From contig JAGOVC010000001.1 in the NCBI GenBank assembly GCA_018060955.1, positions 5,558-69,557 of the forward strand: a stretch of DNA of 64,000 bases. Direction: 5' to 3'. Below, piece after piece: positions 1 to 64,000 of the stretch. The notes beneath the pieces were generated by a model, which worked only from the letters and a program-made list of their open reading frames with translations, was not told where the DNA came from and ran no database searches. The stretch's first letter is position 1. Every line of letters begins with the position of its first letter. Origin of the DNA: Candidatus Woesebacteria bacterium (lineage in GTDB: Bacteria > Patescibacteriota > Microgenomatia > UBA1400 > UBA12028). The position numbers were made by a program, and so were the translations under genes.

Positions 1-1053
1 CTGCTTCTGTTAGCACTGTTTTATGGTGGGGCACTGTACACCAAAACTCCAGCGTTATTTGCAATTCCGAGTTTGGCATTGGCCCCTCTGCTTGCTTGGG
101 CAGTAGAATCAGATTTGGAACAACGGCGATTTGGTTTCAAGAAGATTATCGAGAGTATGGTGTACGTAGGAATCGGCGGATTTTTAGGTGGATGCCTCTT
201 CTTCTTTTTGCGCATTTCTCCCTTGTTTGGAGCGCTGTTCTCGCGTAGTCAGGATTTTACTTTTACATTCTTTGAGTTGTTAAATGGCGAACTTGACTAT
301 GTGATTTTGGAAAGTCTTCCCAGAGTCATCGGTTGGATTGCAACATACCTAACTTTGCCAGTATTTGTTATTCCATTTGTAGGACTTTTCTACGGTAGGC
401 ATCGAAAAACAATTGGAGTACTATTGCTGCAGGCTACCCTATTTGCACTTCCGTTAGTCGGATTCGGCAGGGTGTTGTGGCCTCGATACTTTCTTCCTGT
501 TGTTTTGTTTTGGACTCTCGCTTCGGTATTGTCATTTGAAACAATTTTGACTCAAACTCGGACCCGACTTTTTGGGATCGTAATGATTGGACTAACGCTC
601 ATTAGTAGTGCACTATTTATCTATCCTTCGTTATCTAATCCCGCTCTCATCCCATTTGTTCCTTCCGACAGAACGCAATATCTGACCGAATGGTCCGCAG
701 GATATGGAAATTATGAAATTGCACAATTCATTCGTTGGCGACAATCACTGTTACCCACAAACTCTCCAACCAAAATTGTTGTTTTAACTGAAGGATCCTT
801 CGGAACCCTTCCAGATGGACTAACGATGTATTTTCAAGGTGTAAATGCGCTGCCAAGGATTGAAATTCAGGGCATCGGGGTGTCAGTTCCGGTTATCCCT
901 CAAGAATATCTTTCCAGAGCTAATCAAGATGAAGTGTATTATGCAGTAAACAGTCATCGACTAGGTTTAACTAATCAGGACAATCTAACCAAGCTATTTG
1001 AATACAAACGCCCATCACCAGGTCCAAGTTTACTGTTCTATCAGATTCATTAA
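1..1053 (+). CDS. C-terminal portion of a polytopic membrane protein (5' truncated by the window edge) with a hydrophilic C-terminal domain. Likely another GT-C-like or membrane glycosylation paralog.
   Basis: Frame +1 is open from nt 1 with no stop until 1051-1053. The translation has multiple hydrophobic helices followed by a soluble C-terminal domain. The next gene starts 4 nt downstream. Confidence 0.6.
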   Translation: MLLLALFYGGALYTKTPALFAIPSLALAPLLAWAVESDLEQRRFGFKKIIESMVYVGIGGFLGGCLFFFLRISPLFGALFSRSQDFTFTFFELLNGELDYVILESLPRVIGWIATYLTLPVFVIPFVGLFYGRHRKTIGVLLLQATLFALPLVGFGRVLWPRYFLPVVLFWTLASVLSFETILTQTRTRLFGIVMIGLTLISSALFIYPSLSNPALIPFVPSDRTQYLTEWSAGYGNYEIAQFIRWRQSLLPTNSPTKIVVLTEGSFGTLPDGLTMYFQGVNALPRIEIQGIGVSVPVIPQEYLSRANQDEVYYAVNSHRLGLTNQDNLTKLFEYKRPSPGPSLLFYQIH

Positions 1054-1056
1054 CGT

Positions 1057-2745
1057 ATGCAGAAGTCTAATCTTTTTAAGTTGTTTGATAAATGGCTTGT
1101 TCTGCTGGTCGGAGTGTTGTGCGTATTCTTGACAAGTTTTGCACTTTTCCGGTCGGAGTTCTTTCGACCGCATGATTACACCCATGCAGCGCGGATCGTC
1201 GAGATGCAGCGAAGTATTCAAGCAGGAGAATTTCCAGTCCGCTGGTCAGAAAACTTTGGCTTCGGTTACGGAATGCCACTGTTTAACTTTTATGCGCCTT
1301 TTCCCTATTACTTGGCGCAAATTCCCAATGGAATATTTGGGGTCATCATTGCAATAAAATTCTTGTATCTGTTCAACGCAATCGTTGCCTTTATTGGAAT
1401 GTATCTTCTTGCAAGAGAATATTGGGGGAAATACGGCGCAATCCTAAGCGCGATTATTTTTTCTTTTTCAACTTACAGAGCACTCGATTTGTATGTCCGT
1501 GGTGCAGTGGGAGAAGTTTTTGCGATGGTAGCAATTCCGTTTGCATTGGTAGGAGTTGTGTATCTTGAGAAACAAAAGAAAGGTGGATTCTTTTGGCTTT
1601 CGATGAGTATTGCAATTACATTAACCTCGCATAACTTACTTGGACTATTGTTGGTTCCACTTGTAATCATTTTTGCAGGTACACTCGCAGCCATCTCCAC
1701 TAAAACACGAGAAGAGAAATTGCGGTACTTGAGGTCCGTTGGACTCTCGCTACTGATGGGAATTGGGTTGTGTGCGTTCTATGTTATCCCTGCGTATGCT
1801 GAAAAAGGATTTACTCGCGTTGAACAAACAATTACCACTGGGGATTTTGATTTTCATAATCATTTTGTAGCTCTTCGACAATTACTTTCAGGTACATGGG
1901 GCTATGGTGGCTCCATTCCAGGATTGGAAGATGGATTAAGCTTTGCACTTGGAACAGTTGCCCTGTTACTTGCTGCATCTGCAATCATGATGATTTGGCT
2001 TAAGGGAAGTGCTTTTTCAAAACGATTGTCTATTGTGTTGTTTTTCTTCTTTGCGCTATTTACATGGTTAACGACATCAAAAAGCCTTTGGATCTGGGAA
2101 CACGTATCAACTCTGCGCTTTCTCCAATTCCCTTGGAGACTATTAGCTTTTTCCCACGTGTTTCTGGCTTTATTGGGTGGCGGTTTGGTAGTCGGTGTGC
2201 ACAAACGGGTAGTCAGCGTGGTGATACTGAGTGCCGTGTTGATTTTCGGAGTAACGCAAGCAAAGCTGTTCGTCCCAGAAAAGTATTTACGAGACTACTC
2301 CATGTATTATCGTACGGACGAATCATTTATTCGTGAGACCTTAAGTTTAACGTTAAATGACTATTTGCCTCCTGAAGTTGTGGGGACAAACTATCCAGCC
2401 CCGCTAGAGAATAGGTTAGAGTTGATCTCAGGAGAAGGTACTATCAAGATTATTCAGGAAAAACCCGCTTCGCTCCTTTCGGAGGTTTTCTGCAACACTG
2501 GATGCAAGCTTCAAATAAATGTATTTTCATTTCCTGGATGGAGAGCGTACCTGAATGGAGTATCATTACCATTACTCCCTGATACGGCAACTGCCACCTA
2601 CAACGTAGAGATTCCAAAAGGGGAACATGAACTGTTGGTTCGACTCGAACGAACACCATTACGTGGATTATCAGAATTACTTTCTCTAGTAGCATGGGTT
2701 ATTTTCATCATTGGAGTAGTGCAGTTAAAAAGAATTAAAAAGTAG
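1057..2745 (+). CDS. Polytopic membrane protein of the PTPS-related/COG5617-like family; putative GT-C-type glycosyltransferase.
   Basis: 562 aa with many TM segments. The N-terminal motif HDYTHAARIVEMQRSIQAGEFPVRWSENFGFGYGMPLFNFYAPFPYY looks like the membrane 6-pyruvoyl-tetrahydropterin-synthase-related domain, recalled from memory. Confidence 0.7.
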   Translation: MQKSNLFKLFDKWLVLLVGVLCVFLTSFALFRSEFFRPHDYTHAARIVEMQRSIQAGEFPVRWSENFGFGYGMPLFNFYAPFPYYLAQIPNGIFGVIIAIKFLYLFNAIVAFIGMYLLAREYWGKYGAILSAIIFSFSTYRALDLYVRGAVGEVFAMVAIPFALVGVVYLEKQKKGGFFWLSMSIAITLTSHNLLGLLLVPLVIIFAGTLAAISTKTREEKLRYLRSVGLSLLMGIGLCAFYVIPAYAEKGFTRVEQTITTGDFDFHNHFVALRQLLSGTWGYGGSIPGLEDGLSFALGTVALLLAASAIMMIWLKGSAFSKRLSIVLFFFFALFTWLTTSKSLWIWEHVSTLRFLQFPWRLLAFSHVFLALLGGGLVVGVHKRVVSVVILSAVLIFGVTQAKLFVPEKYLRDYSMYYRTDESFIRETLSLTLNDYLPPEVVGTNYPAPLENRLELISGEGTIKIIQEKPASLLSEVFCNTGCKLQINVFSFPGWRAYLNGVSLPLLPDTATATYNVEIPKGEHELLVRLERTPLRGLSELLSLVAWVIFIIGVVQLKRIKK

Positions 2746-2749: not shown

Positions 2750-4252
2750 ATGAACTTTGCAAAAATAACACCTACGGATGAAAAGACCCCGTCGCTGACG
2801 ATCGATGAGGACGTGTTACAAGTTGAAGATATTAAAAAAAGATCAATGAATGGGGCGATTTCGTATGTACTACGCTCTCTCTTTCTTCAAGGGATAGGTG
2901 TCCTCTCATATTTTTTATTGTCCGCATTGTTGTCTACAGGAGATTTTGGAATATACGGAATTGTTGTTTCAATCAGTAGCTTCTTTACGATTATCTCTGA
3001 TATTGGATTAGCTGCCTCGTTAATTCAAAAGAAAGAAGCTCCAACGATTCGTGACCTACGAACTGTTTTCACAGTTCAACAAATCCTTGCTTGGGTGGTT
3101 TGTCTGTTAATCATCGCAACTGCCTGGTCACTTCATCTAAGTGGAAGATTGGAACTACCGGCAGTATTTCTTGCTGGAGCATTTGCGTTATCCTTTCCCA
3201 TCGTTTCTCTAAAAACTATTTCCTCAATTCTTCTTGAACGTCAGCTAGAATTTGGAAAGTTGGCGATGCCTGCGGTTGTAGAAGCAATCGTCTTTAATGG
3301 GATTGTGCTGTTTTTTGCCTGGCGAGGAATGGGGATCACCAGTTATTCAATAGCCGTACTCGCACGAGCAATCGTTGGCGTCATCATTATGCTTTCCATC
3401 AAACGCTGGCCAGTCGGTTTTGCGTTTTCAAAACCTGCCTTTTCTGACCTAATGAAAGTAGGGATCAAATTTCAAGCGAATGATGTCATCGCAAAAATTA
3501 AAGATGAGTTATTCACTGTGATCACAGTGTTTTTGCTATCAAAATCTGAATTAGGGTACATTACCTGGGCGAATCAGGCTTCTAGACTACCGTATCGCTT
3601 TGGAGTTGATAGTGTCATGGCGATTACATTCCCAACCTTTGCACGACTTCAACACGATGCCCACTTGCTGAAACGAGCTATTGAGAAGACTCTGTTTTTT
3701 GTAAGTTTAGCTGTTTTCCCACTTCTGGCAGGTTTTGCAGTCATGTTTATTCCATTAACATCCTTGATTCCAAAGTATGCTCAATGGCAACCTGCATTAC
3801 TCACCCTCGGTTTCATGTGTGTGAGTATCGCCTTTTCATCGATCTCCACGCCGCTCATCAATACCCTCAATGCCATTGGTAAAATCAACACCTCTCTGCG
3901 ATTCATGTTGATTTGGACGCTGCTGCAGTGGACACTTACACCCTTAGCAATTTGGCGATTCGGCTTTAATGGTGTCGCCATTGCTAGTGTGATCATTTCT
4001 TTTACGGTAATCTTTGTCGTGCGCGCATTGCAGCGTGAGGTGCAATTTGCATTTGTTGAGCAAATCTGGAGGCAATTAGTGGCCTCTTTGTGTATGGCAG
4101 TGTTTTTATTTCAGTTCATTCCACTCTGGAGTCAGTCGTTCCTGCTATTCTGTGCAGGTGTCTTATCAGGAGGTCTACTTTTCATTGGCTTGCTGGCACT
4201 ATTAGGATTTGAGAAGATACGAGGAGAGTTGCTCTCACTAGTTCGAAGATAA
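2750..4252 (+). CDS. wzx: Wzx-type polysaccharide/oligosaccharide flippase (MOP superfamily, PST family).
   Basis: 500 aa with about 12-14 TM segments. The N-terminus (RSLFLQGIGVLSYFLLSALL...DFGIYGIVVSISSFFTIISDIGLAASLIQKKE) is typical of O-antigen or teichoic-acid flippases. Confidence 0.8.
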   Translation: MNFAKITPTDEKTPSLTIDEDVLQVEDIKKRSMNGAISYVLRSLFLQGIGVLSYFLLSALLSTGDFGIYGIVVSISSFFTIISDIGLAASLIQKKEAPTIRDLRTVFTVQQILAWVVCLLIIATAWSLHLSGRLELPAVFLAGAFALSFPIVSLKTISSILLERQLEFGKLAMPAVVEAIVFNGIVLFFAWRGMGITSYSIAVLARAIVGVIIMLSIKRWPVGFAFSKPAFSDLMKVGIKFQANDVIAKIKDELFTVITVFLLSKSELGYITWANQASRLPYRFGVDSVMAITFPTFARLQHDAHLLKRAIEKTLFFVSLAVFPLLAGFAVMFIPLTSLIPKYAQWQPALLTLGFMCVSIAFSSISTPLINTLNAIGKINTSLRFMLIWTLLQWTLTPLAIWRFGFNGVAIASVIISFTVIFVVRALQREVQFAFVEQIWRQLVASLCMAVFLFQFIPLWSQSFLLFCAGVLSGGLLFIGLLALLGFEKIRGELLSLVRR

Positions 4253-4258: not shown

Positions 4259-5182
4259 ATGCCAACCATTACCGCAGTTATCCATACAAAGAATTCACAA
4301 CGCACTCTAGAAGCATGTCTAGCTTCAGTCAACTGGTGTACTGAAGTCTTTGTAATTGATATGGAGAGTACAGATGACACTGTGCAGATTGCAACAAAGC
4401 ATAAGGCAAAAGTGTTTCATGTTAAAGGTAGTCATCGTTTTGCTGATCCTGTTCGCGATGAATTCTTAAAAAAGGTTAAAACCGATTGGACGTTGATTGT
4501 AGATAGCGACGAAGAGGTTCCAGTGACATTAGCCACAAAAATTCAAGAGGTGATGAAATTAGATGAGTTTGATGGCCACAATTTACCTCGGAAAAATCTT
4601 ATTTTTGGACGCTGGATAGAACACACTGGTTTTTGGCCAGATTATATTTTACGTCTGTTTAAGACAGGCAAAGGGAGTTATCCTCCCTACATCCATGCGC
4701 AGCCGAAAGTTGAAGGTGCAATCCATAACCTTGAAGCTAATGAAGACTATGCTCTGGTTCATCACCACTACGAATCCATCGAAGAATTTTTGTTGCGGCT
4801 AAATGTGTACACCTCTTTGGAGGCACAAAAGTATCACTCGTTAGTTCAGGCAAAAGAAGTAGAGCCAGTACAAAAATTTGATTTCATTCAAAGCTTCTTT
4901 GATCAGTTCTTTACACGATTTTTTGCTCAGCAGGGATACAAGGATGGCAAGTTTGGTTTAGTCCTGTCGCTATTGATGGCAGTATATTCAATGGTAGTCC
5001 AAATGAAAATTTGGGAAGGCGTAAAAGAAAAAGATTCTGCTCTGACACTATCTGACGTTGAACTGTCCGTAAACCAAGCATGCACAAACACAACGTATTG
5101 GGTTGCAAATGAAGAGATGACCCAGGAAACAAATCTGTTAAAGAAAATGCAATTAAAGCTTCGAAGAAAGTTATCAAGTTGA
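4259..5182 (+). CDS. Family 2 glycosyltransferase; paralog set A with a C-terminal KGYKDG-type motif.
   Basis: The N-terminus ITAVIHTKNSQRTLEACLASV...VFVIDMESTDDT has GT2 Rossmann and DxD-like features. The C-terminal YKDGKFGLVLSLLMAVY amphipathic/TM segment is shared with the genes at 6185 and 14869. Confidence 0.8.
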   Translation: MPTITAVIHTKNSQRTLEACLASVNWCTEVFVIDMESTDDTVQIATKHKAKVFHVKGSHRFADPVRDEFLKKVKTDWTLIVDSDEEVPVTLATKIQEVMKLDEFDGHNLPRKNLIFGRWIEHTGFWPDYILRLFKTGKGSYPPYIHAQPKVEGAIHNLEANEDYALVHHHYESIEEFLLRLNVYTSLEAQKYHSLVQAKEVEPVQKFDFIQSFFDQFFTRFFAQQGYKDGKFGLVLSLLMAVYSMVVQMKIWEGVKEKDSALTLSDVELSVNQACTNTTYWVANEEMTQETNLLKKMQLKLRRKLSS

Positions 5183-5183
5183 T

Positions 5184-6239
5184 ATGGCAACAGTTGCAAT
5201 CATCCTTATAAACTATAATTCCACACGCCTAACTAAAAAGTGTGTAAAGTCATTATTTTCTACAAAAGAAGATCAAGACACTTATCATGTCGTCATCTGG
5301 GACAATGCATCAAAGCAAGCTCCCACACCGGAAGATTTTCCTGATTGTAAGCTAGTGCTGTCGCCCACAAACGACGGCTTTGCAAAAGGAAATAATCTTG
5401 CAGTGAAAACCGCATTGAAGACGCAAAATCCTGATTACCTATTGATCCTGAATAATGATACTCGAGTTACTAAAGGGATGATTCGACAACTTATCACAAC
5501 CTACCAATCTGCTAGTGACATCGGTATCGTTTTGCCCAAGATTTATTTTGAAAAAGGTTATGAGTTTCATCAAAAGGATTATGACCACAGCAAGTTGGGG
5601 AAAATATTATGGTTTGCTGGTGGAGGTATCGATTGGCGCAACGCAATTTTATTTCACAAAGGTGCTGATGAGGTCGATCGAGGACAATTTGATCTTGATA
5701 CGAGCTCTCATGTCTTGCAACAACACAAAGATAGTTTGGGACAAAAAATTGAGCGGTTACTGTTCGAAGACACAGTGCTTCCTGAACCTATTGGGGGACA
5801 AGCAACCAAAGCTACGTCTTACGATTCCCATTTTGCCACCGGATGTTGCTTTCTTATTACCCCAGCATTATGGAAAAAACTTCAGGGATTTGATGAAAAG
5901 TATTTTATGTATTATGAAGATGCAGATTTTTCACTTCGCCTCAAAAAGTTACGAAAGAGAATTGTTTTCGAGCCTCAATCATCGCTCTATCATCTGAACG
6001 CGGGGTCTTCTGGAGGGAGTGGTTCCACACTGCATCTGTACTATCAGACAAGAAATCGATTGCGCTTTGGTTTAAAGTATGCTTCCCTTAAAACTAAGCT
6101 GTTGCTTCTTCTAGAAGCACGTAGACAGTTCAGTCAGGGGACAGAAGCAGTGAAGCTTGGTATACTCCATGCATTGGAGGGTCGATGGGGCAATCAAACA
6201 AAATACATTCCACAACACAGACACTTTCAGCAATCATAA
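5184..6239 (+). CDS. Family 2 glycosyltransferase, rhamnosyltransferase-like (WbbL-type); paralog set B.
   Basis: VAIILINYNS...VIWDNASKQ, LILNNDTRV and the YFMYYEDADFSLRL motif. The start is 2 nt after the upstream stop. Confidence 0.8.
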   Translation: MATVAIILINYNSTRLTKKCVKSLFSTKEDQDTYHVVIWDNASKQAPTPEDFPDCKLVLSPTNDGFAKGNNLAVKTALKTQNPDYLLILNNDTRVTKGMIRQLITTYQSASDIGIVLPKIYFEKGYEFHQKDYDHSKLGKILWFAGGGIDWRNAILFHKGADEVDRGQFDLDTSSHVLQQHKDSLGQKIERLLFEDTVLPEPIGGQATKATSYDSHFATGCCFLITPALWKKLQGFDEKYFMYYEDADFSLRLKKLRKRIVFEPQSSLYHLNAGSSGGSGSTLHLYYQTRNRLRFGLKYASLKTKLLLLLEARRQFSQGTEAVKLGILHALEGRWGNQTKYIPQHRHFQQS

Positions 6240-7027
6240 TCACCAAAAATGAAGAAACCATGATTGCAAACTGTGTGGCAGCGCTGCGCTTTTGTGACGA
6301 AGTCATCGTTGTTGATTCTGGATCTACCGATAGCACGATGGAACTTGCAAAGCGTGAGGGTGCAAGTATTGTGCAGGTTACAGACGGGACATTTAAGGAT
6401 TGGCGCAATAAAGGATTGGCAGAAGCATCGAGTGACTGGATTTTGTATATCGATGCCGATGAGCGTGTGACGCCCAAACTGGCAGGAGAAATTCAGGAAT
6501 CGATTCAATTTACTTCAATGGCAGCCTTTCAGCTGAAGAGAAACAATATCCATTTTGGTAAATGGATGGAATACGGTGGCTGGGAAACTGACGTGATTGT
6601 CCGTCTGTTTAAAAAAGATCATCTCCAGGGTTGGAGCGGTGATGTTCATGAGTCAGCAACTGTAGATGGAGTAACTGGACAGTTGAAAGAACCACTTGTA
6701 CACCTTAGTCATCGCAGTATCCGGGATGGATTACTAAAATCACACGCCTGGATTGATTTGGAAGCAAAGCTTTTCATTGAAGCCAAGGCAAAGCCAGTCA
6801 CAGCCTGGACCCTCGTTCGTAAGTTTGGGATGGAATTTATTCGTCGGCTAATTCTTAAAAAGGGGTACAAAGATGGCATGGAAGGCTGGATTGAAAGTTT
6901 TCAGCAAGCCGTGAACCGCTTCTTTGTGTATGCCCGTGTCTGGGAGCTTCAACAGAAGCCATCTCTGGATGAGAAATATTCACGGATCGAAAAAGAGATT
7001 TTCAAACTCTGGGAAAAGCAGTCATAG
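6185..7027 (+). CDS. Family 2 glycosyltransferase; paralog set A.
   Basis: LSAIIITKNEE...VIVVDSGSTDST...KKGYKDGMEGWIESF. The ORF-track start overlaps the upstream gene by 55 nt, so the true start may be an alternative codon further in. Confidence 0.75.
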   Translation: MGQSNKIHSTTQTLSAIIITKNEETMIANCVAALRFCDEVIVVDSGSTDSTMELAKREGASIVQVTDGTFKDWRNKGLAEASSDWILYIDADERVTPKLAGEIQESIQFTSMAAFQLKRNNIHFGKWMEYGGWETDVIVRLFKKDHLQGWSGDVHESATVDGVTGQLKEPLVHLSHRSIRDGLLKSHAWIDLEAKLFIEAKAKPVTAWTLVRKFGMEFIRRLILKKGYKDGMEGWIESFQQAVNRFFVYARVWELQQKPSLDEKYSRIEKEIFKLWEKQS

Positions 7028-7041
7028 CTTGGTGTTATCCT

Positions 7042-8136
7042 ATGAAAACTGTAGGTCTTTATTCACCCTATATTCCAAAGCACGCTGGTGGTGGAGAGCG
7101 CTATTTGTTGAGTATTGCCGAAGTATGCAGTCAGTATCACTCAACATATCTTCTTGTACCGGCAGATCTTGTAGTGGAAACACAACGAGCCCTACCTCGA
7201 TACTCAAAAATGTTTGGGTTGGATTTATCTGCAGTCAAAGTGAAGGCAAGCCTCATTGGAATTTCTAAATCTCCCATCACCACAGTAAAAGAAACGCAGG
7301 CCTTCCATTACCTTTTTGCCATGACAGACGGTAGTATCTTCCCCACACTTTGTCGTAATTCCTATCTAATCATGCAAGTTCCATGGAAGCGTCCATTAAA
7401 GGTCACGGAACGCGCAAAATTAATCTCGTGGAAAAAAATACTCGTGTATTCGGACTTCGTTGCAAAAGTGCTATCTCAAAGTTGGCATGTACGGAAGCTG
7501 GAAGTTCTTGCCCCCTACGTGGATCATAAAGATTTTGTTGCTGGGAAGAAAGAAAAGCTTATTGTGACAACCGGTCGCTTTTTTGCCCATTCTCAAAGTA
7601 ACAGTAAGCATCAAGATGTGCTGATCCAAGCATTTATAAAATGGATCGATCAAGATCATCCGAAGGGCTGGCATTTTGCAGTCGTGGGTAATGTTGATCC
7701 AAACCCTGATAGTCATGACTACGTCTCGAAATTAAAAGAGCTTTCAAGAGGGTATCCAATTAGTTTGCATCTCAATGTTTCTTTTGATGAACTACGCGCC
7801 TTTTATGCTCGAGCGCAGTTTTATTGGCATGCTGCAGGATTTAACGTTGACGAAAAGAAGCATCCTGAGAACACGGAGCACTTTGGGATCACTACTGTTG
7901 AAGCAATGGCCAGCGGGGCAATACCGATCGTAGTTCCCAAAGGAGGTCAAGTCGAAGTCGTTGGAGATCCGCAGCTGTACTGGAACTCTCCTCAAGAATT
8001 AGTGGATGCAATGCGAAAGCTAGTAAAGCAGTCGTCTGCACAACGCGACGATTTGCTAGAGAAGTTGCTACTACAATCTAAACGGTATTCAAAAGAGAAC
8101 TTTGAGCGATCCCTAAAAAAGTTACTGAATCTATGA
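7042..8136 (+). CDS. GT4-family (GT-B fold) glycosyltransferase.
   Basis: C-terminal EHFGITTVEAMASGAIPIV nucleotide-sugar-binding motif. It is a paralog of the gene at 61074. Confidence 0.8.
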   Translation: MKTVGLYSPYIPKHAGGGERYLLSIAEVCSQYHSTYLLVPADLVVETQRALPRYSKMFGLDLSAVKVKASLIGISKSPITTVKETQAFHYLFAMTDGSIFPTLCRNSYLIMQVPWKRPLKVTERAKLISWKKILVYSDFVAKVLSQSWHVRKLEVLAPYVDHKDFVAGKKEKLIVTTGRFFAHSQSNSKHQDVLIQAFIKWIDQDHPKGWHFAVVGNVDPNPDSHDYVSKLKELSRGYPISLHLNVSFDELRAFYARAQFYWHAAGFNVDEKKHPENTEHFGITTVEAMASGAIPIVVPKGGQVEVVGDPQLYWNSPQELVDAMRKLVKQSSAQRDDLLEKLLLQSKRYSKENFERSLKKLLNL

Positions 8137-55210: not shown

Positions 55211-55256
55211 GATGTGAGTGATCATATCATTAATTAGATTGACGATGCACAGTGTT

Positions 55257-56572: not shown

Positions 56573-58384
56573 CTATCGATAGAGTCGATAGTGCATATTC
56601 TCAAAAACTTTTGTTCTAGTTTCTGTAACTTCCATCGGCATTTCTTTGTTTTCAAGAATATAGCTAACCTTTGAATCTCTCCCACACGCTGTGTAACAAA
56701 CTTCAACCTGAGCATGAAGGACATTAGCAATGCGATGTTGCAACTCCTGAGTATTCGTTTGGATCCCAACAACCGATGTGTGTGAAGGGATGTGTTCAAC
56801 GACGTCTCGAAGCGCTGGATCACTCACGATCCAATCTTGCTGAACTCCTACAAATTGGGATGTGAGAAAAAAGTAAAAAGGAGACAGAAATCCTAGTACG
56901 AGCATCGCTCCTATAATGGCACGTGGCAAGGCTTTCCATTCTTTTGAAAAAGTGAACAGACAAAGCGGAACTATTAAAAACAATGGACGCAATAATTTTG
57001 TGAATGCGAGATCATCGGCATCTGCACCGGGAGTTCGCGCAAAGTAGATCCAGAGTGGGAACAGCAAGAGGATTGTGAATAACCAAGGATTGGATAGTTT
57101 CTTTTTGAAAAAAGCGAGTGTAATAGTACCGATTCCCAAGAAACCCAGGTATTTCCAAAATTCCAATTTATTAACAGATGCATAGGCAAAACGCGAAGCC
57201 GCTGATTCGCTAATCGAAAGATCTAAATAGACGACCCCCCAAGAATGGAGTGGTCGAAGGATAGGAAGGTTTTTCCCTACTGCCCCTGCCAGAATCAGCA
57301 AAGTAAAAAATAATCCAATCAGCATATAGAGAACAGTTCGTTGTCTGGATGATAGCAATCGGAACAGATAAAAAACTCCAGTTATAACTCCAAAAACAAG
57401 AAACGCTAGACAAAAAGCTCGGTTTATTAACCATAAACTTAGTGTACTAAATATCGCCAGCAGCAAAACGTTTCGAAAAGTTGACAGGCTTGTAGGCGTT
57501 TTTTTCAAGAGATTTCGTAATAAGTCCTTTTCGTTTACCAACGACAGTTGAACCAGTAGAGAAAGCACTACAAAGAAGGTAAGACCATGCCAGGTAAGAC
57601 CAGCGTATTCAAACAGAATTGGAGTATGTAACTGTGGAAATGAGAAACCGCGAAGGACATTGTCACTAAATGAATCGAATAACAAGAGACTGGGCCCCAG
57701 GATAAAACCTACTCCGATGAAAACACTACTAGAAAAGTCTGAGACTGAAAAATATTTGGCTAGCAACTTAGAAAGAACGAACGGTGCAGGAATAAACAAA
57801 CTTAACTTGATAATATCTAGCGATTTTTCAACACTCAAATTCGTTACTGCTTTAAGAGCAATGACTGGAAAGTATAGTCCGACATGATATCCGTCAATCT
57901 TGCTACCAATTCGATAGGGCTCCAATAACGGGTAGGTTGGGGCTTCAAAGAATAGTTTGATATTCGCGTGATGATAGTATTCGTCATGTAACCCGTTCTG
58001 GTACGTGAGGTTGTAGAGGAAGAAAGACCCCACCAGAGTGACAAAGAGTACCACCATCAAAAACAAGTTTGGTTTTTTGAGTGCAGATACGAGTCTCTTT
58101 CCAATCAGAAGATATCCTCCTATACTCAAGGTTATAAACACACAAGTGATTGCTTGAATAACAAATAGTGGTTTTGGAAGTATCCGTAGCAAAACTTCAA
58201 CGATTATTACGAATGCCGAAACAGAGAGGTAGGGGAAGGCAAAGCGAAAGAGTGAGTTACGGACCCAAGGGAGAAGTAACGATACTCCACCTAGGGCTAA
58301 GATTGTAAGGACTGCATAAAATCCGTCTACAACGAAATGGGGGAAGATAACTGAATAATGCGACAGCAGTGCATCCATAGCCAA
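56573..58384 (-). CDS. Large polytopic membrane protein, function unknown (GT-C-like candidate).
   Basis: 603 aa with at least 12 helices and a soluble C-terminal domain. Confidence 0.7.
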   Translation of the reverse strand: MAMDALLSHYSVIFPHFVVDGFYAVLTILALGGVSLLLPWVRNSLFRFAFPYLSVSAFVIIVEVLLRILPKPLFVIQAITCVFITLSIGGYLLIGKRLVSALKKPNLFLMVVLFVTLVGSFFLYNLTYQNGLHDEYYHHANIKLFFEAPTYPLLEPYRIGSKIDGYHVGLYFPVIALKAVTNLSVEKSLDIIKLSLFIPAPFVLSKLLAKYFSVSDFSSSVFIGVGFILGPSLLLFDSFSDNVLRGFSFPQLHTPILFEYAGLTWHGLTFFVVLSLLVQLSLVNEKDLLRNLLKKTPTSLSTFRNVLLLAIFSTLSLWLINRAFCLAFLVFGVITGVFYLFRLLSSRQRTVLYMLIGLFFTLLILAGAVGKNLPILRPLHSWGVVYLDLSISESAASRFAYASVNKLEFWKYLGFLGIGTITLAFFKKKLSNPWLFTILLLFPLWIYFARTPGADADDLAFTKLLRPLFLIVPLCLFTFSKEWKALPRAIIGAMLVLGFLSPFYFFLTSQFVGVQQDWIVSDPALRDVVEHIPSHTSVVGIQTNTQELQHRIANVLHAQVEVCYTACGRDSKVSYILENKEMPMEVTETRTKVFENMHYRLYR

Positions 58385-58406: not shown

Positions 58407-60092
58407 ATGACAACTAAAGTACAACTACAATCAATCATCTTTCCGATACTGTTTACTTTTGGAGTCATCCTTTTTCTGTTTCGTTCACTTCTTTTTCAAT
58501 TTGACAGAGCTCTCTTGGATGGCATTGATTATCCATTGTATGCATGGATTCTTCAGACTGGAATTGCCAATGTAGGCAAGTTGTTTTCGCAAGGGCTATT
58601 TTTTGGGAATGCGTTTTATCCCTCCATGCAAGCACTACTCTTTTCTGACACTTTTTATCCCCTAAGTTTTCTATTGCTTCCTCTTTCGTTGCTCACGCAG
58701 TCTCCATTCATCATCCTCAATACAGGAGTCTTGGTTACATTATTTCTGAATGTAGTTAGTGCCGCTGTACTTACCCGCAATTTCACCTCCAAACGTGGAG
58801 CGCATACCCTATTAACACTCATCTTCTCTGTCTCACCCTATTTTTTCACGCAGATCCCTCATTTACAGATGTTGTCATTCTGGCCTAGCTATTTAATGAT
58901 CCATGTACTGTTCATCGCGAAACGTCCCAGATCATTTCTGGCGGTTGCAATGCTTCTATCGATGCAATGGTATCTATCGGTGTACTTAGGGACGATGGCA
59001 CTAGTAATAGCAAGTGTCTGGTGGCTTGTTTCCTTTTTCGGCAATAACACTAGACGAGACTTGGTTCGTAACGTACTCTTGTCCGGTTTCGTTTTTCTAT
59101 TGCTAACTGGACCATTACTCATTGCCTACCGCAATATTCGAAATGTATATCAAGCAACTCCAGATGCAGGAATGTTTGTTGATTATGCTGCGCAACCAAC
59201 AGATTATTTCTTTAGCAGAGGAGAGCCTACAGTACTTGCGCTGATGTCTCCGTTTAAGCTCTGGAACACACTCAATCATCGCGGAGCTGGAGAACCGGCA
59301 CGATGGATCGGTTTTGCTGTGCTCTTTCTTGGCACTTGTGGAATTATCATGTGGCGAAAGAGTGAAGATGTAATGACAAAAAAAGCAGGATGGTTTGCGA
59401 TCATCTTAGCTGTAGTGGGTCTGGTTTTCTCGTTTGGGACGCGTTTGACACTGAATGGAACCTATACGGGATTCCCATTACCATATCTGCTCGTACTAAA
59501 AAGTTTCCCAATCCTTAGCTTTTTCCGATCACCCTCACGTTGGTACTTCTTGTTTGTACTGGGATGGTGCGTATTTTCAGCGTTGGGTGTCCAGAGACTA
59601 TTGAAGACAGCAAAGAGTCGACAGTGGATTATTGCATTGGGAATTGTGTACGCAGCAGAAATGTTTCCTATGCAAATTCCTGTTACGACAATCTCGAAGC
59701 CAGATTATGTAGAGTGGCTATCAAACACCTGTAGACCAGGGGACGTAGTACTTAGTCTGCCCATCTTTTCACATTATGGTGCAGGTACAGTTGCCTTGAA
59801 TCCGTCCCCGACCTCTCAACTAATGATGTGGACGGTTAACAGTCAATGTCGGTTACTAAACGGCTATAGTGGAATACTGCCATCTTCCCTCAAGGAGCTT
59901 GATCAGCGAGCTAAACTAAAACTAGATTCCGACTTCGTGAGGATAGCAAGAGAGCGAGGGGTCACGCTTCTTTTGATGCATCAAGTTCCATTAGAGACGG
60001 TAGCTAGTTTCTCGACAGTTCCTGACGTACAATTAATAGATCAGGATCACACTTCCAGCCTATGGCGCCTACTCCCAAATCAAAAAAACTAG
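58407..60092 (+). CDS. Large polytopic membrane protein with a C-terminal extracytoplasmic domain, function unknown.
   Basis: 561 aa. The N-terminal half has many helices. The C-terminal roughly 150 aa are hydrophilic. Confidence 0.7.
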   Translation: MTTKVQLQSIIFPILFTFGVILFLFRSLLFQFDRALLDGIDYPLYAWILQTGIANVGKLFSQGLFFGNAFYPSMQALLFSDTFYPLSFLLLPLSLLTQSPFIILNTGVLVTLFLNVVSAAVLTRNFTSKRGAHTLLTLIFSVSPYFFTQIPHLQMLSFWPSYLMIHVLFIAKRPRSFLAVAMLLSMQWYLSVYLGTMALVIASVWWLVSFFGNNTRRDLVRNVLLSGFVFLLLTGPLLIAYRNIRNVYQATPDAGMFVDYAAQPTDYFFSRGEPTVLALMSPFKLWNTLNHRGAGEPARWIGFAVLFLGTCGIIMWRKSEDVMTKKAGWFAIILAVVGLVFSFGTRLTLNGTYTGFPLPYLLVLKSFPILSFFRSPSRWYFLFVLGWCVFSALGVQRLLKTAKSRQWIIALGIVYAAEMFPMQIPVTTISKPDYVEWLSNTCRPGDVVLSLPIFSHYGAGTVALNPSPTSQLMMWTVNSQCRLLNGYSGILPSSLKELDQRAKLKLDSDFVRIARERGVTLLLMHQVPLETVASFSTVPDVQLIDQDHTSSLWRLLPNQKN

Positions 60093-61090
60093 ATGCATCC
60101 ATTATTATTGTTAACTTTAATGGAAAATCTCTGCTAGGTGCCTGTTTAAAGTCACTTCAAACGCAATCGACTTCCCACACGTTTGAAATCATTGTTGTCG
60201 ATAATGCGTCAACCGACGGATCCGTAGACTATCTCTTTGCACAGTTTCCCGATGTGATCGTTGTTCAAGAGAATCAAAATTCTGGATTTGGTCGGGCGAA
60301 TAATTTGGGAGCATCCCGTGCAACTGGAGAGTATCTGATCTTCCTGAATGCTGACACAGAAGTAGAGCCGACATGGTTATTCGAAATGTTAACTGTCGCA
60401 CAGTCAAACCCGAAAATTGCTGCTGTATCACCCCGAGTGTATTTGTACGCAACAAAAGGAAATCAAAAGAAAGTTCAAAATGCGGGGATCCTGGTGTTTA
60501 AGCAGGGATTTGCAACCGATCGGGGTGTCTTTTATCGCAATGGTGTTTCAGACTATGAACTCGATAGTAAATTCTATGATCAACCAACTACACTTCCTGC
60601 CTGTTGTGGGGTGAGTTTGCTCGTTAAAACAGACGCTTTTACTAGCATTGGTGGTTTTGATCATGATTATTTTATGTATTACGAAGACGTGGATCTCTCG
60701 TTACGGTTACGTCAACGAGGATATCTATGCGAATATGCTCCTAAAGCGATAGTCTGGCATCATCACGGAGCATCCAGCCAGATTGCTTCTCCTTTTTTCA
60801 TCTTTCATACCGAGCGAAGTAGAATACTATTTGTCGCAAAACACTTTCCTTTAAGCACTCTACTAACAACAGTGTTTTTCTATCTCGGATTCATTTCCGT
60901 TGCTTTTGCTCGTGCAGTTTCAATGTTGCTGCAATCAGATTTTTCACAGATGAATCGATGGTTAGAAATAACTAGACTTCGTTGTAGCGTCCTGTTACAA
61001 GTAGTCGTGAAGATCCCTCAAATTATCGTGCGTACCCGTACCAAGCCCACATGGATAGCTGCAATGAACTTGTATGAAACATTCCTCTAA
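60062..61090 (+). CDS. Family 2 glycosyltransferase, rhamnosyltransferase-like; paralog set B.
   Basis: IIIVNFNGKS, IIVVDNASTDGS, IFLNADTEV and YFMYYEDVDLSLRL. Confidence 0.8.
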   Translation: MAPTPKSKKLDASIIIVNFNGKSLLGACLKSLQTQSTSHTFEIIVVDNASTDGSVDYLFAQFPDVIVVQENQNSGFGRANNLGASRATGEYLIFLNADTEVEPTWLFEMLTVAQSNPKIAAVSPRVYLYATKGNQKKVQNAGILVFKQGFATDRGVFYRNGVSDYELDSKFYDQPTTLPACCGVSLLVKTDAFTSIGGFDHDYFMYYEDVDLSLRLRQRGYLCEYAPKAIVWHHHGASSQIASPFFIFHTERSRILFVAKHFPLSTLLTTVFFYLGFISVAFARAVSMLLQSDFSQMNRWLEITRLRCSVLLQVVVKIPQIIVRTRTKPTWIAAMNLYETFL

Positions 61091-62603
61091 TATCCATACC
61101 ATTGCTGTGTATGATCGCTGGTTCTTTAGAATGGGCGGAGGCGAGCGCATGGTGTGTGAGTTACTTCGCAGTTTAAACTCGCAGGGATATGAAGTTACTC
61201 TAATCTCACAAATAGAGATTGATATTGAAAAGGCGTCAAGGGAATTTGGAATTGAGCTTCAATTTGTAAAAACGCTCCTAGTCTCAGATATCAATGAAGA
61301 ACAATTGGGATCGATTTCGAAAGGATATGATCTTTTTATCAACGCCTCTCATCTGGATATCGTTCCTAATCAAGCACAACGAGGTGTAATACTTCCGTTT
61401 TTCCCAGCAAAGCAGGCAAACTCGATGAAGGATAAAATTAAGCTGGGTGTAGTTATTCCATTACTGCGAGCCTTGCTTGTTTATCCAAAGAGAATGATTG
61501 GATTCACGGGTGATTTCCTACTTTCATCACGATCCATCATCACATTTTCACAGCAGAAACTTTCCCAAGTTGGATTGGTGCTTTCCGTTCCACAGTTTTC
61601 GGCTTCTTTTATAGAATCTGTCCAGTTTTTTTGTGGGGATACACAACTATTCCCTACAACCAGAGCAAACGTTGTTCAAAAGAAAATCAGTTATCAGTTT
61701 GAAGACCTTGATCTATTACGAGACAACGGAATTCGTATTCAAATCCCAAACGGAGTTTTACATGAGAACGTACGATTGGAGTCAATAGAGATTCCATCAC
61801 TTCGCTTTAGTCTCTGGAAAATATTTTCAGGACTTTTCCCTGAAGCCTCCGTTCGACTAACTGGTGGAGCAAGTTTGAATTTTTTGGATCGTGTCTCTAC
61901 CTATCAGCAAATCTGGGCAATCTCCTTGTATACGCAACAATGGATTCAAACGTACTGGGGAAAAGAATCAGAGATACTTTTCCCACCGGTTAACGTTCAT
62001 TCCTTTTCTTCTGCAGCTCACAAGTCAAACAGAATTATTCATATCGGACGATTCTTTTCCGGGGGACACAGTAAAAAACAACTCGAACTAGTGACTGCAT
62101 TTCGACAGATGGTTGATGAAGGTTTAGCGGATTGGGAACTTCATTTGGTAGGCAAACCTGCAGGAGAATCGATCCATCAAAAATACTTCCAACACATTCA
62201 AACATTGGCGCAAGGTTATCCTATTATTTTCCACTCCGATGCTGATACAAAAACACTTCAAAAACTTCTTTCAGAATCAAAGATTTATTGGCATGCGACG
62301 GGATATCAAGAGGATCTGACTACACACCCAGAAGCGGCCGAGCATTTCGGAATATCTACCGTAGAAGCAATGGCTTCGGGATGTGTGCCAGTTGTCTATG
62401 CAGCGGGAGGTCAGAAAGAAATTGTAGGCAACAACGAGGGACACACATGGACAACAATCGAGGAGCTTAAGAGCATCACAAAAAACCTCATTGAAGATCC
62501 AAAGCAACTTGCTACACTATCCTCACAAGCGATGGTCAAGGCTAGGGACTACGACACGGCGCAATTTGAAGTAAGATTAAATGATCTAGTGAATAAATTA
62601 TGA
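61074..62603 (+). CDS. GT4-family glycosyltransferase with a long N-terminal extension.
   Basis: EHFGISTVEAMASGCVPVVYAAGGQKEIV. It is a paralog of the gene at 7042. Confidence 0.8.
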   Translation: MKHSSNIHTIAVYDRWFFRMGGGERMVCELLRSLNSQGYEVTLISQIEIDIEKASREFGIELQFVKTLLVSDINEEQLGSISKGYDLFINASHLDIVPNQAQRGVILPFFPAKQANSMKDKIKLGVVIPLLRALLVYPKRMIGFTGDFLLSSRSIITFSQQKLSQVGLVLSVPQFSASFIESVQFFCGDTQLFPTTRANVVQKKISYQFEDLDLLRDNGIRIQIPNGVLHENVRLESIEIPSLRFSLWKIFSGLFPEASVRLTGGASLNFLDRVSTYQQIWAISLYTQQWIQTYWGKESEILFPPVNVHSFSSAAHKSNRIIHIGRFFSGGHSKKQLELVTAFRQMVDEGLADWELHLVGKPAGESIHQKYFQHIQTLAQGYPIIFHSDADTKTLQKLLSESKIYWHATGYQEDLTTHPEAAEHFGISTVEAMASGCVPVVYAAGGQKEIVGNNEGHTWTTIEELKSITKNLIEDPKQLATLSSQAMVKARDYDTAQFEVRLNDLVNKL

Positions 62604-64000
62604 AAAATCCAGTGCGTAATTTCTTTCTTCGTCACTGGTTATTCTGGATTACACTCCTAGGATTCACATTGCTCCTAGCAAGGAACCCATTCTCCGAGCG
62701 CACTCTGATCGCGAACTTCGAACCGTATCCTGACTCTTTTCACTATATTTTGCCTGCACGAAATCTGCTGATGGGGAAGGGGTTTTCCATGGATCGTCTG
62801 GGAAAAATTGTTCCTGGTGTTCCACCTTTTTACTCCCTCGTATTCGTTCCATTCTTTGCGATACTCAATGATCCGAGAATGGTATACGTAGCCAACGTGC
62901 TCCTTTCATTGTTGTCCTTGGTTATCTTCTATGCGCTAGTCCGAAAATTCTTTTCGGCAGGAATACTCCAACTATTCTTGTGTCTGCTGTTTGTTACCCA
63001 TCCAATTTTGGTTTGGTATCCAACCTTAGCGATGGCTGAAAATTTACAGTTACTACTTACTTTGCTTGGACTGTATATGCTCTGTACGCGACCTACCAGT
63101 AAAAAGTATTTTCTAGGTGGGGCGCTAACAATTTCATATTACGCAACCAAATTCGCCAGTATTCCAGTCAGTGCAGTATATGGGCTGGTATTTTTTGCAA
63201 AGAGCATCGTGCACTCTATTCAAGAAAAGAGTTGGAAACCTGTTGTCCTATTTATTGCAGGCGCCCTTGTGTGTCTGACCCTCTATCTGTCTATGGAGTA
63301 TTCAATTCGACAGACGACAGAGTTGCATATGATCGCTAATGTATTATTTCCTAAACCTGCACAGATCTCCGGAACTGCCGGTGATGCTCCCGCGGTTCCT
63401 GATCAAACATTCTTTTCAGTTGTGTATGTCAAAGACCATGCCCCGCAGTACTTGCGTTGGCTTACTGGTGAATCTCTTCCACTCTTGTGGAAGCAGGAGG
63501 TATTACTTCCACGGTATCTAGCTGTCTTAAGTCTGGTGGGAATTGGAATCGGATTTTTTGATAAAAAATATCGACTCTTTTCCCTCACCGCCGTGGGAAT
63601 GTATGTTGCAACCATTGGCTTCATGAGTATGTTTTATGTTGTTGATGCTCGGTATTTCTACCACGCGATCCCTGTTGCGTTGCTCGGGGTAGGTATTGCA
63701 GGAACAAAACTCTATGAACTCGCCAAATCACGCTCGCTGTGGGTGGGAATTGGGATAGCGGGTCTGCTGCTGTTCTATTTGATGACAAACTTTTCCCGGT
63801 TAAAATTTCAACTATCCTTAAATCTAAAGTATGCGGAAAGTCCTTGGTACTATGTTTCCGTTCGCAAAGTTGATGCGTATTTGTCAACCCAACAATTTGA
63901 AAAAGAGCCAGTGGTAATCTCACCGGTACCTCCATTTTTATTTGATTTTTATGCAAAGTCTCCAATGATCATGCTTCCATTACACAAAGAACAGGAGTTT
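62600..64000 (+). CDS. Polytopic membrane protein, 3' truncated by the window edge; GT-C-like candidate.
   Basis: The ATG at 62600 forms an ATGA overlap with the upstream TGA. The frame stays open for 467 codons to the window end. Hydrophobic helices alternate with short loops. Confidence 0.7.
   Translation, partial: MKNPVRNFFLRHWLFWITLLGFTLLLARNPFSERTLIANFEPYPDSFHYILPARNLLMGKGFSMDRLGKIVPGVPPFYSLVFVPFFAILNDPRMVYVANVLLSLLSLVIFYALVRKFFSAGILQLFLCLLFVTHPILVWYPTLAMAENLQLLLTLLGLYMLCTRPTSKKYFLGGALTISYYATKFASIPVSAVYGLVFFAKSIVHSIQEKSWKPVVLFIAGALVCLTLYLSMEYSIRQTTELHMIANVLFPKPAQISGTAGDAPAVPDQTFFSVVYVKDHAPQYLRWLTGESLPLLWKQEVLLPRYLAVLSLVGIGIGFFDKKYRLFSLTAVGMYVATIGFMSMFYVVDARYFYHAIPVALLGVGIAGTKLYELAKSRSLWVGIGIAGLLLFYLMTNFSRLKFQLSLNLKYAESPWYYVSVRKVDAYLSTQQFEKEPVVISPVPPFLFDFYAKSPMIMLPLHKEQEF

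Follow-up and report, generated by a model that had tools for sequence, protein, structure and literature searches.

A conserved glycan block dense in GT-C-type membrane proteins in a Candidatus Woesebacteria genome

Introduction

Why would a bacterium with a strongly reduced genome keep more than a dozen membrane-embedded glycosyltransferases in one place, and do they serve a common purpose? The question is raised by 64,000 nucleotides of a Candidatus Woesebacteria contig, the whole of which is referred to here as the window. A preliminary description of this stretch had taken it for a single glycan-assembly super-cluster, unusually rich in glycosyltransferases of the GT-C fold and a candidate for an undescribed glycosylation machinery. 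Members of the candidate phyla radiation (CPR, or Patescibacteria) are abundant, almost wholly uncultured bacteria with strongly reduced genomes (typically about 1 Mb). An existence attached to other cells is generally assumed for them and would make their surface chemistry central to their biology. Here, we find that the window is most of a native block of about 76 kb and that at least 13 of its large membrane proteins carry evidence, good or moderate, of GT-C identity. We propose that the block is probably a cell-envelope glycan locus in which two known logics operate at an unusual scale. Genes are named by their first coordinate in the window, with a trailing minus sign for the minus strand (Table 1).

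Results

The window contains 54 open reading frames (ORFs) of at least 150 amino acids (aa), with two further listed ORFs nested inside larger genes, and it is densely packed: overlaps are frequent and only six gaps exceed 60 bp. Its proteins are registered as MBP9699651-705, from a Candidatus Woesebacteria metagenome-assembled genome in which they lie on a contig of 71,374 bp. Pfam scans of all 54 ORFs reproduced exactly the counts first reported, namely 13 glycosyltransferases of family 2 (GT2), seven of family 4 (GT4; GT-B type, Glycos_transf_1) and two Wzx flippases. They also found three epimerase/dehydratases of the short-chain dehydrogenase/reductase (SDR) type, two DegT aminotransferases, two hexapeptide acetyltransferases, two S-adenosylmethionine (SAM) methyltransferases and one each of an AsnB-type amidotransferase, a GFO/IDH/MocA oxidoreductase and a NUDIX protein. 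The preliminary description had named nucleotide-sugar enzymes for deoxy, amino, acetyl, amido and methyl modifications. Both greA and sodA lie inside the block, as had been noted.

Gene order is collinear in five related assemblies. An independent assembly from a different sample, a 179,503 bp Logan contig of run SRR25168019 (in pieces L082, L083 and L084), follows the gene order of the window from end to end, with 71-96% amino-acid identity and one two-ORF insertion. Three metagenome-assembled genomes from GTDB (L002, CAZWPK010000002.1; L003, CAZNKS010000034.1; L004, CAZDWN010000003.1) share the gene order of the window's first 20.6 kb, their proteins being 35-88% identical; sodA is embedded in each of them, and greA was detected only in L002. 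The more distant Logan contig SRR28413663_21310 (L087) holds the order over roughly 15-38 kb, its membrane-protein orthologs being some 31-41% identical, and lacks 21855 and 26410-. GT-C content thus varies between lineages, and gains and losses of GT-C genes account for part of the block's evolution. In the SRR25168019 relative the borders are clear. Upstream, FtsE/FtsX, LTD, VanZ and TrmD are followed by a UDP-sugar dehydrogenase as the first glycan gene and then by two SDR genes, a GT2-GtrA fusion, PMT_2, PMT_2-like and GT2 genes and an MptA_B_family gene; downstream (L083), Peptidase_S51, glyoxalase and DUF1801 genes come right after the 62600 ortholog. By coordinate arithmetic the block measures about 76.5 kb in this relative, and the window covers all but its first 10 kb or so.

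The block is therefore native, ancestral, vertically inherited and chromosomal, as the collinear independent assembly and the order shared among relatives demonstrate. That the segment might instead be an assembly chimera or a mobile island of recent arrival is so improbable that we set it aside. The independent assembly agrees with it end to end, G+C content is flat (0.40-0.44) along the whole window, a tRNA scan of the 64 kb found none, no integrase or transposase domain occurs among the window ORFs by Pfam, and relatives share the order with sodA embedded in it. The preliminary description had argued from the missing mobility genes and tRNAs for an intrinsic super-cluster, and the relatives and housekeeping borders bear this out. 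Two observations on the relatives may be added. The insertion in the SRR25168019 contig (L084 12687-13856) holds ORFs of 90 and 287 aa without Pfam matches and lies between the orthologs of 42867-43979 and 43976-45193. The records L002, L003 and L004 are titled 'uncultured Pseudomonadales bacterium', at odds with a locus collinear with Woesebacteria at up to 88% protein identity, and these names look like placeholders or errors.

All 17 coordinates originally listed for large polytopic membrane proteins correspond to real ORFs; the starts given as 12736, 18589, 29345 and 34941 fall inside the respective ORFs, two of the four coinciding with gene calls in a relative. Hydropathy supports a large polytopic protein, with about 7-14 peaks, in 16 of the 17. 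The remaining one (29288, listed as 29345) has only some three N-terminal transmembrane (TM) segments and a soluble domain and for this reason is not a GT-C candidate. Together the 16 polytopic genes take up some 25.5 kb, which by coordinate arithmetic is 40% of the window. GT-C identity is well supported for ten of them and moderately for three (34827, 56573- and 62600), and the other three (27666-, 30277 and 58407) received no GT-C assignment by sequence. The early view that all 17 are GT-C-like thus holds for 13, with 29288 excluded and three left unclassified.

Five of the proteins (12715, 15765-, 26410-, 34827 and 52783-) match PMT_2 above its gathering score, and 1-1053 and 1057 belong to the GT-C clan through their orthologs; PTPS_related, PMT and PMT_2 are all families of Pfam clan GT-C, CL0111 (PMC7801869). 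The fragment 1-1053, which matches nothing in Pfam by itself, is 88% identical to a 526 aa protein of the relative (L082 6724-8304) with precomputed PF13231 PMT_2 and weak PF02366 PMT matches. The L004 ortholog of 1057 (47% identity) has a PF10131 PTPS_related match of 1.1e-10 (41 bits; cut-off 26.4), and 1057 itself was recruited into the PMT_2 group by iterative hidden Markov model (HMM) searches. These searches were run with reversed-sequence decoys and stricter statistics (an uncontrolled --max run was not relied on) and drew in neither decoys nor Wzx proteins. Pairwise comparisons tie further proteins to this group: 10329 to 12715 (BLASTP E 5e-43 over 576 columns; hhalign probability 100%), 21855 to 52783- (hhalign 98.6% over 433 columns; BLASTP 9e-5) and 26410- to 52783- (hhalign 97.7%); NCBI names 52783- a glycosyltransferase family 39 protein. 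The statistics are weaker for 34827, a late recruit of the iterative search with an hhalign value of 60.7% to the PMT_2 core group and no precomputed Pfam match among its orthologs. They are likewise weak for 62600, which matches the NCBIfam LA_3751/LA_3752 putative glycosyltransferase model at 9.7e-06 over residues 75-236, resembles 52783- at BLASTP 2e-3 and the PMT_2 group at hhalign 65.7%, and joins that group at 1.7e-3 with zero decoys recruited.

Seven proteins (18586, 27666-, 30277, 41310, 56573-, 58407 and 62600) match no GT-C clan family in Pfam or NCBIfam. For two of them structure prediction supplied the answer: the AlphaFold models of 41310 and 18586 are confident and similar in three dimensions to solved GT-C enzymes, and neither protein has a Pfam or NCBIfam match at E<=10. 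The 18586 model is predicted to have three extra N-terminal TM helices and an AglB-like C-terminal globular domain. Its family has 68 members, with D153, P169, Y183, H184, K326 and Q492 conserved; ten members looked up by cluster name are all 'hypothetical protein'. The 41310 family counts 40 members among 5.8 billion clustered proteins and has an invariant I-D-D-H motif right after TM1, which would place it at the usual site of the GT-C catalytic acid. Besides CPR relatives, its named members come from Geobacter, Leptospira, Bradyrhizobium and Oligoflexia, and so scattered an occurrence suggests that this rare type of GT-C has been passed on horizontally.

Conserved acidic motifs in the first large extracytoplasmic loop (the membrane side being taken from the positive-inside rule only) are common to both kinds of protein: WDEA after TM1 in 10329, YWEEA in 12715, HEDE in 15765-, HDY in 1057, IDDHE (invariant in 40 sequences) in 41310 and D153 in the 18586 family. 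Similar conserved loops occur in 27666- (WYDSLLYH, after a basic cytoplasmic loop), 30277 (HTDWDA...YDYRA), 56573- (LHDEYYHH), 58407 (DGIDYP, after TM1) and 62600. A layout of about three TM segments, a basic loop, a TM segment and a conserved acidic/aromatic loop is shared by 18586, 56573-, 30277 and 27666-. In 18586 this layout is that of a GT-C protein with an N-terminal extension, and by analogy only the other three may be built likewise. In addition, 56573- aligns with the 18586 family over residues 73-168, the N-terminal TM region that includes its conserved loop (hhalign 93.7%), and we regard it with moderate confidence as a probable distant relative.

In an all-against-all hhalign comparison of thin alignments only 21855, 26410- and 56573- were linked to other groups (15765- against 41310 reached 73.6%, too weak for use alone), and iterative searches started from a single sequence brought up no paralog of 18586, 27666-, 29288, 30277, 41310, 56573- or 58407. 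With six homologs each among 5.8 billion proteins, nearly all from close relatives, 30277 and 56573- are effectively lineage-specific orphans. A metagenome-contig scan with 27666- returned one marginal locus only. The ortholog of 27666- has a precomputed PF26626 DUF8201 match, and a 58407 ortholog (77% identity) matches DUF6311 at only E 0.012 (15.8 bits) in our local Pfam scan. Pfam sources disagree here, the precomputed DUF8201 and DUF6311 assignments of the orthologs (L086, L083) being unmarked as weak and the local scan giving none for 27666- or 58407. The non-candidate 29288 is kept beside 27666- and 30277 in both L086 and L087.

One could suppose that the polytopic proteins are transporters (of the major facilitator or ATP-binding cassette superfamilies, or others) and that hydrophobicity alone makes them look like GT-C proteins, particularly as ten of them lack a Pfam match of their own. 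For the ten membrane proteins without an assignment, the only matches at E<=10 in Pfam and NCBIfam were LIC_10190_fam (27666-) and a weak LA_3751 (62600), and PDB sequence searches (phmmer, hmmsearch) with 21855, 27666-, 58407, the ortholog of 62600 and the profile of the 18586 family came back empty. However, none of the 17 proteins matches a transporter family in Pfam or NCBIfam, and the supposition is already refuted for 13 of them. We consider it very unlikely.

Against the same relative (L082, L083, L084), the GT-C-type proteins are about 71-89% identical, the sugar-nucleotide enzymes 84-94% and the Wzx proteins 93-96%, and the outward-facing transferases seem to evolve faster than the other two classes.

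If so many GT-C enzymes are at work, lipid-linked donors would be needed, and genes of this type stand beside them. Soluble 23738 is followed by a small DUF2304 membrane protein (24376), an arrangement known from the characterised GT2 + DUF2304 pairs GacI/GacJ of Streptococcus pyogenes and PpgS/Rv3632 of Mycobacterium tuberculosis (bioRxiv 10.1101/180810). The second candidate, the membrane-anchored 55218, resembles PgfS (249 bits against an equivalog cut-off of 500) and ArnC (154 against 529); the matches of 55218 and of 23738 (to PpgS and AglJ) all fall below equivalog cut-offs. In the relative a third synthase-type gene, a GT2-GtrA_DPMS_TM fusion, lies just upstream of the window position. 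These similarities suggest that the block encodes about three putative polyprenyl-phosphate-sugar synthases, 23738 with its DUF2304 partner and 55218 among them, and the 4-TM protein of 113 aa that follows 55218 is a candidate ArnE/F-like flippase. GT-C genes flank the synthases, with 52783- and 56573- around 55218 and 21855 and 26410- around 23738.

The neighbourhood of 55218 recalls the Arn pathway of lipid A aminoarabinose modification, in which ArnC is the undecaprenyl-phosphate Ara4FN transferase: it holds an ArnC-like GT2, an adjacent ArnE/F-like ORF, SDR and DegT genes and, nearby, PMT_2 (the ArnT family). We rejected this identity, with no ArnA formyltransferase or ArnD deformylase found and the ArnC match far under its cut-off; CPR bacteria are not known to make lipid A.

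Could the locus serve mainly protein O-glycosylation, its PMT- and PMT_2-type GT-C enzymes working in the manner of actinobacterial Pmt or streptococcal Pgf enzymes on surface proteins (S-layer, pilin or others) instead of making polysaccharide? The PMT and PMT_2 matches, and a weak TMEM260-like match on 52783-, point that way. So does the similarity of 55218 to PgfS of the Streptococcus mutans Pgf protein-glycosylation system (4.7e-74), the more so as 55218 adjoins SDR epimerase/dehydratase and GT-C genes, like its counterpart in the pgf operon. However, PMT_2 also covers enzymes that modify lipid A or polymers, such as ArnT, the PgfS match is under its equivalog cut-off, and no acceptor protein is encoded in the block. 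Moreover, 20 cytoplasmic glycosyltransferases and two Wzx proteins point to oligo- or polysaccharide assembly, and the upstream MptA_B_family protein to polymer elongation. As the main role of the locus, protein O-glycosylation therefore appears unlikely to us.

N-glycosylation, which had also been suggested, finds no support. The WWDYG-type oligosaccharyltransferase motif (W[WYF]D[YWF]G) is absent from all window ORFs and from each of the 68 sequences that make up the 18586 family, and no window ORF has an STT3 Pfam match. The 18586 protein resembles STT3, AglB and PglB in overall fold only, and the conserved residues of its family have no sequence correspondence to oligosaccharyltransferase motifs. 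With no WWDYG motif, an oligosaccharyltransferase identity for 18586 was rejected.

Discussion

The findings are most readily accommodated if the window is 64 kb of a native cell-envelope glycan locus with two branches, a reading that we think probable. In the cytoplasmic branch, the 13 GT2 and seven GT4 enzymes would build lipid-linked oligosaccharides from sugar nucleotides tailored by the encoded epimerases/dehydratases, methyltransferases, acetyltransferases and AsnB-type amidotransferase, with a cassette for 3-oxidation, 3-amination and 3-N-acetylation supplying one tailored sugar nucleotide, and the two Wzx flippases would export the products. In the extracytoplasmic branch, GT-A enzymes (23738 with its DUF2304 partner, 55218 and the upstream GT2-GtrA fusion) would load single sugars onto polyprenyl phosphate, and the loaded lipids would be moved across the membrane by small or Wzx-type flippases. 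On its outer face, 13 or more GT-C proteins of the window (perhaps 16) and three upstream would then each transfer one sugar to a growing glycan or a surface protein. The second branch follows a published scheme of GT-A synthase, GtrA- or Wzx-type flippase and GT-C transferase (PMC8035078). With about three donor synthases to 13-16 GT-C proteins in the window, many of the latter must share donors. The GT-C enzymes may use polyprenyl-phosphate-sugar donors, to which the donor-synthase-like GT2 genes of the same block point indirectly. That these enzymes are active, what their donors and acceptors would be and that they would serve one or a few common products we infer from family membership and gene neighbourhood.

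Several points weigh against this reading. The genes are known from sequence alone and the organism is uncultured; three of the polytopic proteins (27666-, 30277 and 58407) are without a fold assignment, and 34827, 56573- and 62600 rest on weak statistics. The flippase matches of the 113 aa ORF are below Pfam thresholds. No initiating phosphoglycosyltransferase (Bac_transf or MraY/WecA), Wzy/WaaL-type protein (Wzy_C) or Wzz was recognised in the block (by Pfam; in the upstream 10 kb by precomputed annotation), so that the Wzx-dependent branch is incomplete as seen. Such enzymes either have their genes outside the block or go unrecognised among its membrane proteins without an assignment, and a divergent Wzy could be one of 27666-, 30277 and 58407. 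Finally, the genes fall into some 15 transcription units that alternate between the strands, and greA and sodA lie among them, which leaves functional unity a conjecture; GT-C genes also come and go (21855 and 26410- being missing in L087), which speaks for a modular rather than an obligatorily joint function.

The last two points also fit another view, in which the block consists of several independent envelope loci (two Wzx pathways and separate three-component systems) that are mere neighbours in a small, gene-dense genome. The insertion in the Logan relative and the presence of at least three different donor synthases could be read in the same way. Yet relatives with as little as 35-50% identity still keep the gene order, the genes are tightly packed with frequent overlaps, and the block runs uninterrupted between housekeeping flanks in the relative. 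Mere neighbourhood is, as an alternative to a single locus, improbable on balance.

How does the proposed two-branch locus compare with known systems? GtrB/GtrA/GtrC, CsbB/GtcA/YfhO, GacI-GacJ/GacK/GacL and lactococcal CsdAB/CD/EF with CflA consist of the GT-A, flippase and GT-C parts that are predicted here (PMC8035078). The likeness would extend to detail, 55218 being a putative membrane-anchored GT-A synthase and 23738 a putative soluble one with a DUF2304 partner (24376), as in GacI/GacJ. However, the organisms known to have such multi-component systems carry one to few GT-A/GT-C pairs, often scattered, whereas here about three putative synthases sit with 13-16 GT-C proteins of the window (16-19 in the block), several of the latter from families without a Pfam model. 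Among the closest GT-C-based systems are those for mycobacterial arabinogalactan, lipomannan and lipoarabinomannan (LAM), with Ppm1, PpgS-Rv3632-Rv3779, MptA/B, Emb and Aft. No Emb- or Aft-family matches and no decaprenyl-phospho-arabinose pathway genes were seen in the block, and its host is a CPR bacterium without a mycolate envelope, unlike the mycobacteria, whose GT-C genes are dispersed over a genome of about 4 Mb rather than gathered in one locus.

The block also resembles O-antigen, capsule and secondary cell-wall loci of the Wzx/Wzy type in its Wzx genes, its runs of GT2 and GT4 genes, its DegT, hexapeptide and SDR genes, its WbpB/E/D- or QdtB/C-like cassette and its AsnB-type amidotransferase. 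It differs from them in the lack of the recognisable polymerase/ligase, Wzz and initiating enzyme and in being three to four times longer than is typical. Classical O-antigen and capsule loci usually have none to two GT-C genes and this block has more than ten. With GT-C evidence for 13 of the 17 listed proteins, its density is far above theirs.

A bolder view can be built on the same genes. The block would be a single extracytoplasmic assembly line in which at least 16 GT-C enzymes build one elaborate surface glycan for cell-to-cell attachment, comparable to the ALG pathway of the endoplasmic reticulum lumen or to mycobacterial arabinogalactan and LAM synthesis, compressed into one locus of a small CPR genome. 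On this view at least two and up to five GT-C proteins of the block (41310, 56573-, 30277 and the 18586 family) would come from families without a database model. Moreover, the 18586 family, with its predicted STT3/AglB-like build and no WWDYG motif, could be a new en-bloc transferase replacing Wzy/WaaL-type enzymes for Wzx-exported oligosaccharides. We regard all this as a long shot.

For the two-branch locus, "undescribed glycosylation machinery" is an overstatement, as all the parts that can be recognised fit known kinds of system, namely Wzx-dependent assembly and multi-component extracytoplasmic glycosylation by GT-A, flippase and GT-C proteins, and no new principle is demonstrated. What sets the block apart is the number and density of GT-C genes, their union in one conserved CPR locus and the GT-C families that databases do not model. 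A full-text search of one paper library turned up no work on GT-C enzymes of Patescibacteria or Woesebacteria, which is only weak evidence that the expansion is undescribed. Two structurally supported GT-C families unrecognised by Pfam and NCBIfam, and three candidates, extend the catalogue of glycosyltransferases that use lipid-linked donors. If the genome is of typical CPR size, a glycan block of about 76 kb is several percent of it, and such a share of DNA spent on glycan assembly, some 40% of it on GT-C genes, suggests a surface glycan or glycoproteome that is both elaborate and important.

Other genes of the window

Among the tailoring genes, 49168-51929 suggests a cassette for a 3-amino, 3-N-acetyl sugar, its exact product being a matter of prediction from sequence matches. 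The AsnB-type enzyme 39381- is a candidate for sugar-acid amidation. The best PDB match of 54245- is to a protein deposited as dTDP-glucose 4,6-dehydratase (8.5e-71).

Table 1. Genes of the window with coordinates, strand and principal matches (Pfam unless stated otherwise).
Coordinates	Strand	Feature	Evidence or remark
1..1053	+	C-terminal 350 aa of PMT_2/PMT-type GT-C	gene start lies upstream of window
1057..2745	+	PTPS_related-type GT-C, 562 aa	no Pfam match of its own
2750..4252	+	Wzx no. 1	Polysacc_synt_3 6e-40; NCBI name oligosaccharide flippase family protein, MBP9699651
4259..5182	+	GT2 (first of five-gene run, 4259..9059)	Glycos_transf_2
5184..6239	+	GT2	Glycos_transf_2
6185..7027	+	GT2	Glycos_transf_2
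7042..8136	+	GT4	Glycos_transf_1
8133..9059	+	GT2 (last of run)	Glycos_transf_2
9077..9544	+	greA, transcription elongation factor	GreA_GreB 4.5e-23; GreA_GreB_N 1.1e-15
9594..10208	-	sodA, Fe/Mn superoxide dismutase	Sod_Fe_C 3.8e-39; Sod_Fe_N 1.9e-28
10329..11867	+	GT-C, 512 aa, paralog of 12715	no Pfam match
11773..12099	+	DUF1653 gene	DUF1653 7.8e-23
12083..12739	+	218 aa soluble protein	no Pfam match
12715..14409	+	PMT_2/PMT-type GT-C, 564 aa	PMT_2 2.2e-11 (44.7 bits); PMT 4.5e-07
14261..14872	+	NUDIX hydrolase	NUDIX 2.5e-16
14869..15768	+	GT2	Glycos_transf_2 4.6e-18
15765..17489	-	PMT_2-type GT-C, 574 aa	PMT_2 2.2e-10, 41.4 bits; BLASTP to 12715 1e-33
17354..18589	+	GT4	Glycos_transf_1 1.5e-24; Glyco_transf_4 1.5e-12
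18586..20646	+	GT-C-fold transferase, no named family, 686 aa	confident AlphaFold model
20667..21566	+	SDR sugar-nucleotide epimerase	Epimerase 1.3e-64; NCBI name UDP-glucose 4-epimerase
21855..23642	+	distant PMT_2-related GT-C, 595 aa	C-terminal soluble domain of about 210 aa; no Pfam match
23738..24394	+	GT2 of putative synthase pair, 218 aa	full length to PpgS 5.1e-28, AglJ 1.2e-28, both below equivalog cut-offs
24376..24729	+	DUF2304 small membrane partner	DUF2304 1.2e-17, above cut-off
24704..25480	+	GT2	Glycos_transf_2 1.1e-24
25484..26431	+	SDR epimerase	Epimerase 1.8e-54
26410..27660	-	PMT_2-type GT-C, 416 aa	PMT_2 7.9e-06, 26.6 bits (cut-off 26.1)
27666..29327	-	polytopic LIC_10190 / DUF8201 family protein, 553 aa	NCBIfam LIC_10190_fam 1e-29, 103.6 bits (cut-off 100)
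29288..30280	+	311-330 aa protein, about 3 N-terminal TM, soluble C-terminal domain	hydropathy; no family match
30277..31620	+	polytopic orphan, 447 aa	no family match (Pfam, NCBIfam)
31607..32449	+	SAM methyltransferase	Pfam
32439..33008	-	hexapeptide acetyltransferase	Pfam
32974..33864	-	GT2	Pfam
33785..34951	+	GT4	Pfam
34827..36743	+	polytopic, borderline PMT_2, 600-638 aa	PMT_2 6.4e-06, 26.9 bits (cut-off 26.1)
36706..37716	+	GT2	Pfam
37701..38579	+	SAM methyltransferase	Pfam
38576..39388	+	GT2	Pfam
39381..41252	-	AsnB-type glutamine amidotransferase	Asn_synthase 2.3e-87; GATase_7 1e-45
41310..42845	+	GT-C-fold transferase, rare unnamed family, 511 aa	confident AlphaFold model
42867..43979	+	GT4	Pfam
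43976..45193	-	GT4	Pfam
45202..46380	-	DegT aminotransferase	Pfam
46389..47771	-	Wzx no. 2	Polysacc_synt 7.3e-23; MurJ 3.8e-10
47813..49117	+	GT4	Pfam
49168..50166	+	GFO/IDH/MocA oxidoreductase	Pfam; PDB sequence matches generic only
50171..50839	+	QdtC-like N-acetyltransferase	Pfam; PDB sequence match QdtC 2.3e-33
50760..51929	+	QdtB/WbpE-like aminotransferase	Pfam; PDB sequence matches QdtB 4.9e-115, WbpE 2.6e-81
51956..52771	+	GT2	Pfam
52783..54258	-	PMT_2-type GT-C, 491 aa	PMT_2 1.6e-12 (48.3 bits); weak TMEM260-like match
54245..55303	-	SDR sugar-nucleotide dehydratase/epimerase	Epimerase 1.5e-57; GDP_Man_Dehyd 8.1e-56
55218..56216	+	GT2 with C-terminal TM helices	NCBIfam, full length: PgfS 4.7e-74, ArnC 3.1e-45
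56221..56562	+	113 aa 4-TM protein	EamA 6e-4, TMEM234 1.9e-4, both below cut-offs
56573..58384	-	polytopic near-orphan, 601-603 aa	no family match (Pfam, NCBIfam)
58407..60092	+	polytopic protein with soluble C-terminal domain, 552-561 aa	no family match of its own
60062..61090	+	GT2	Pfam
61074..62603	+	GT4, 509 aa	Pfam
62600..64000	+	first 467 aa of 550 aa polytopic protein	last gene of block

The greA gene begins 17 bp past the last GT2 gene of the five-gene run (gap 9059-9077) on the same strand and closes a 9 kb run of glycan genes, with which it may be co-transcribed; its position is identical in L002 and L082. The sodA gene occupies the same embedded position in L002, L003, L004 and L082. 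The DUF1653 gene and the gene for the 218 aa soluble protein sit between two GT-C genes and are kept in L002, L004 and L082.

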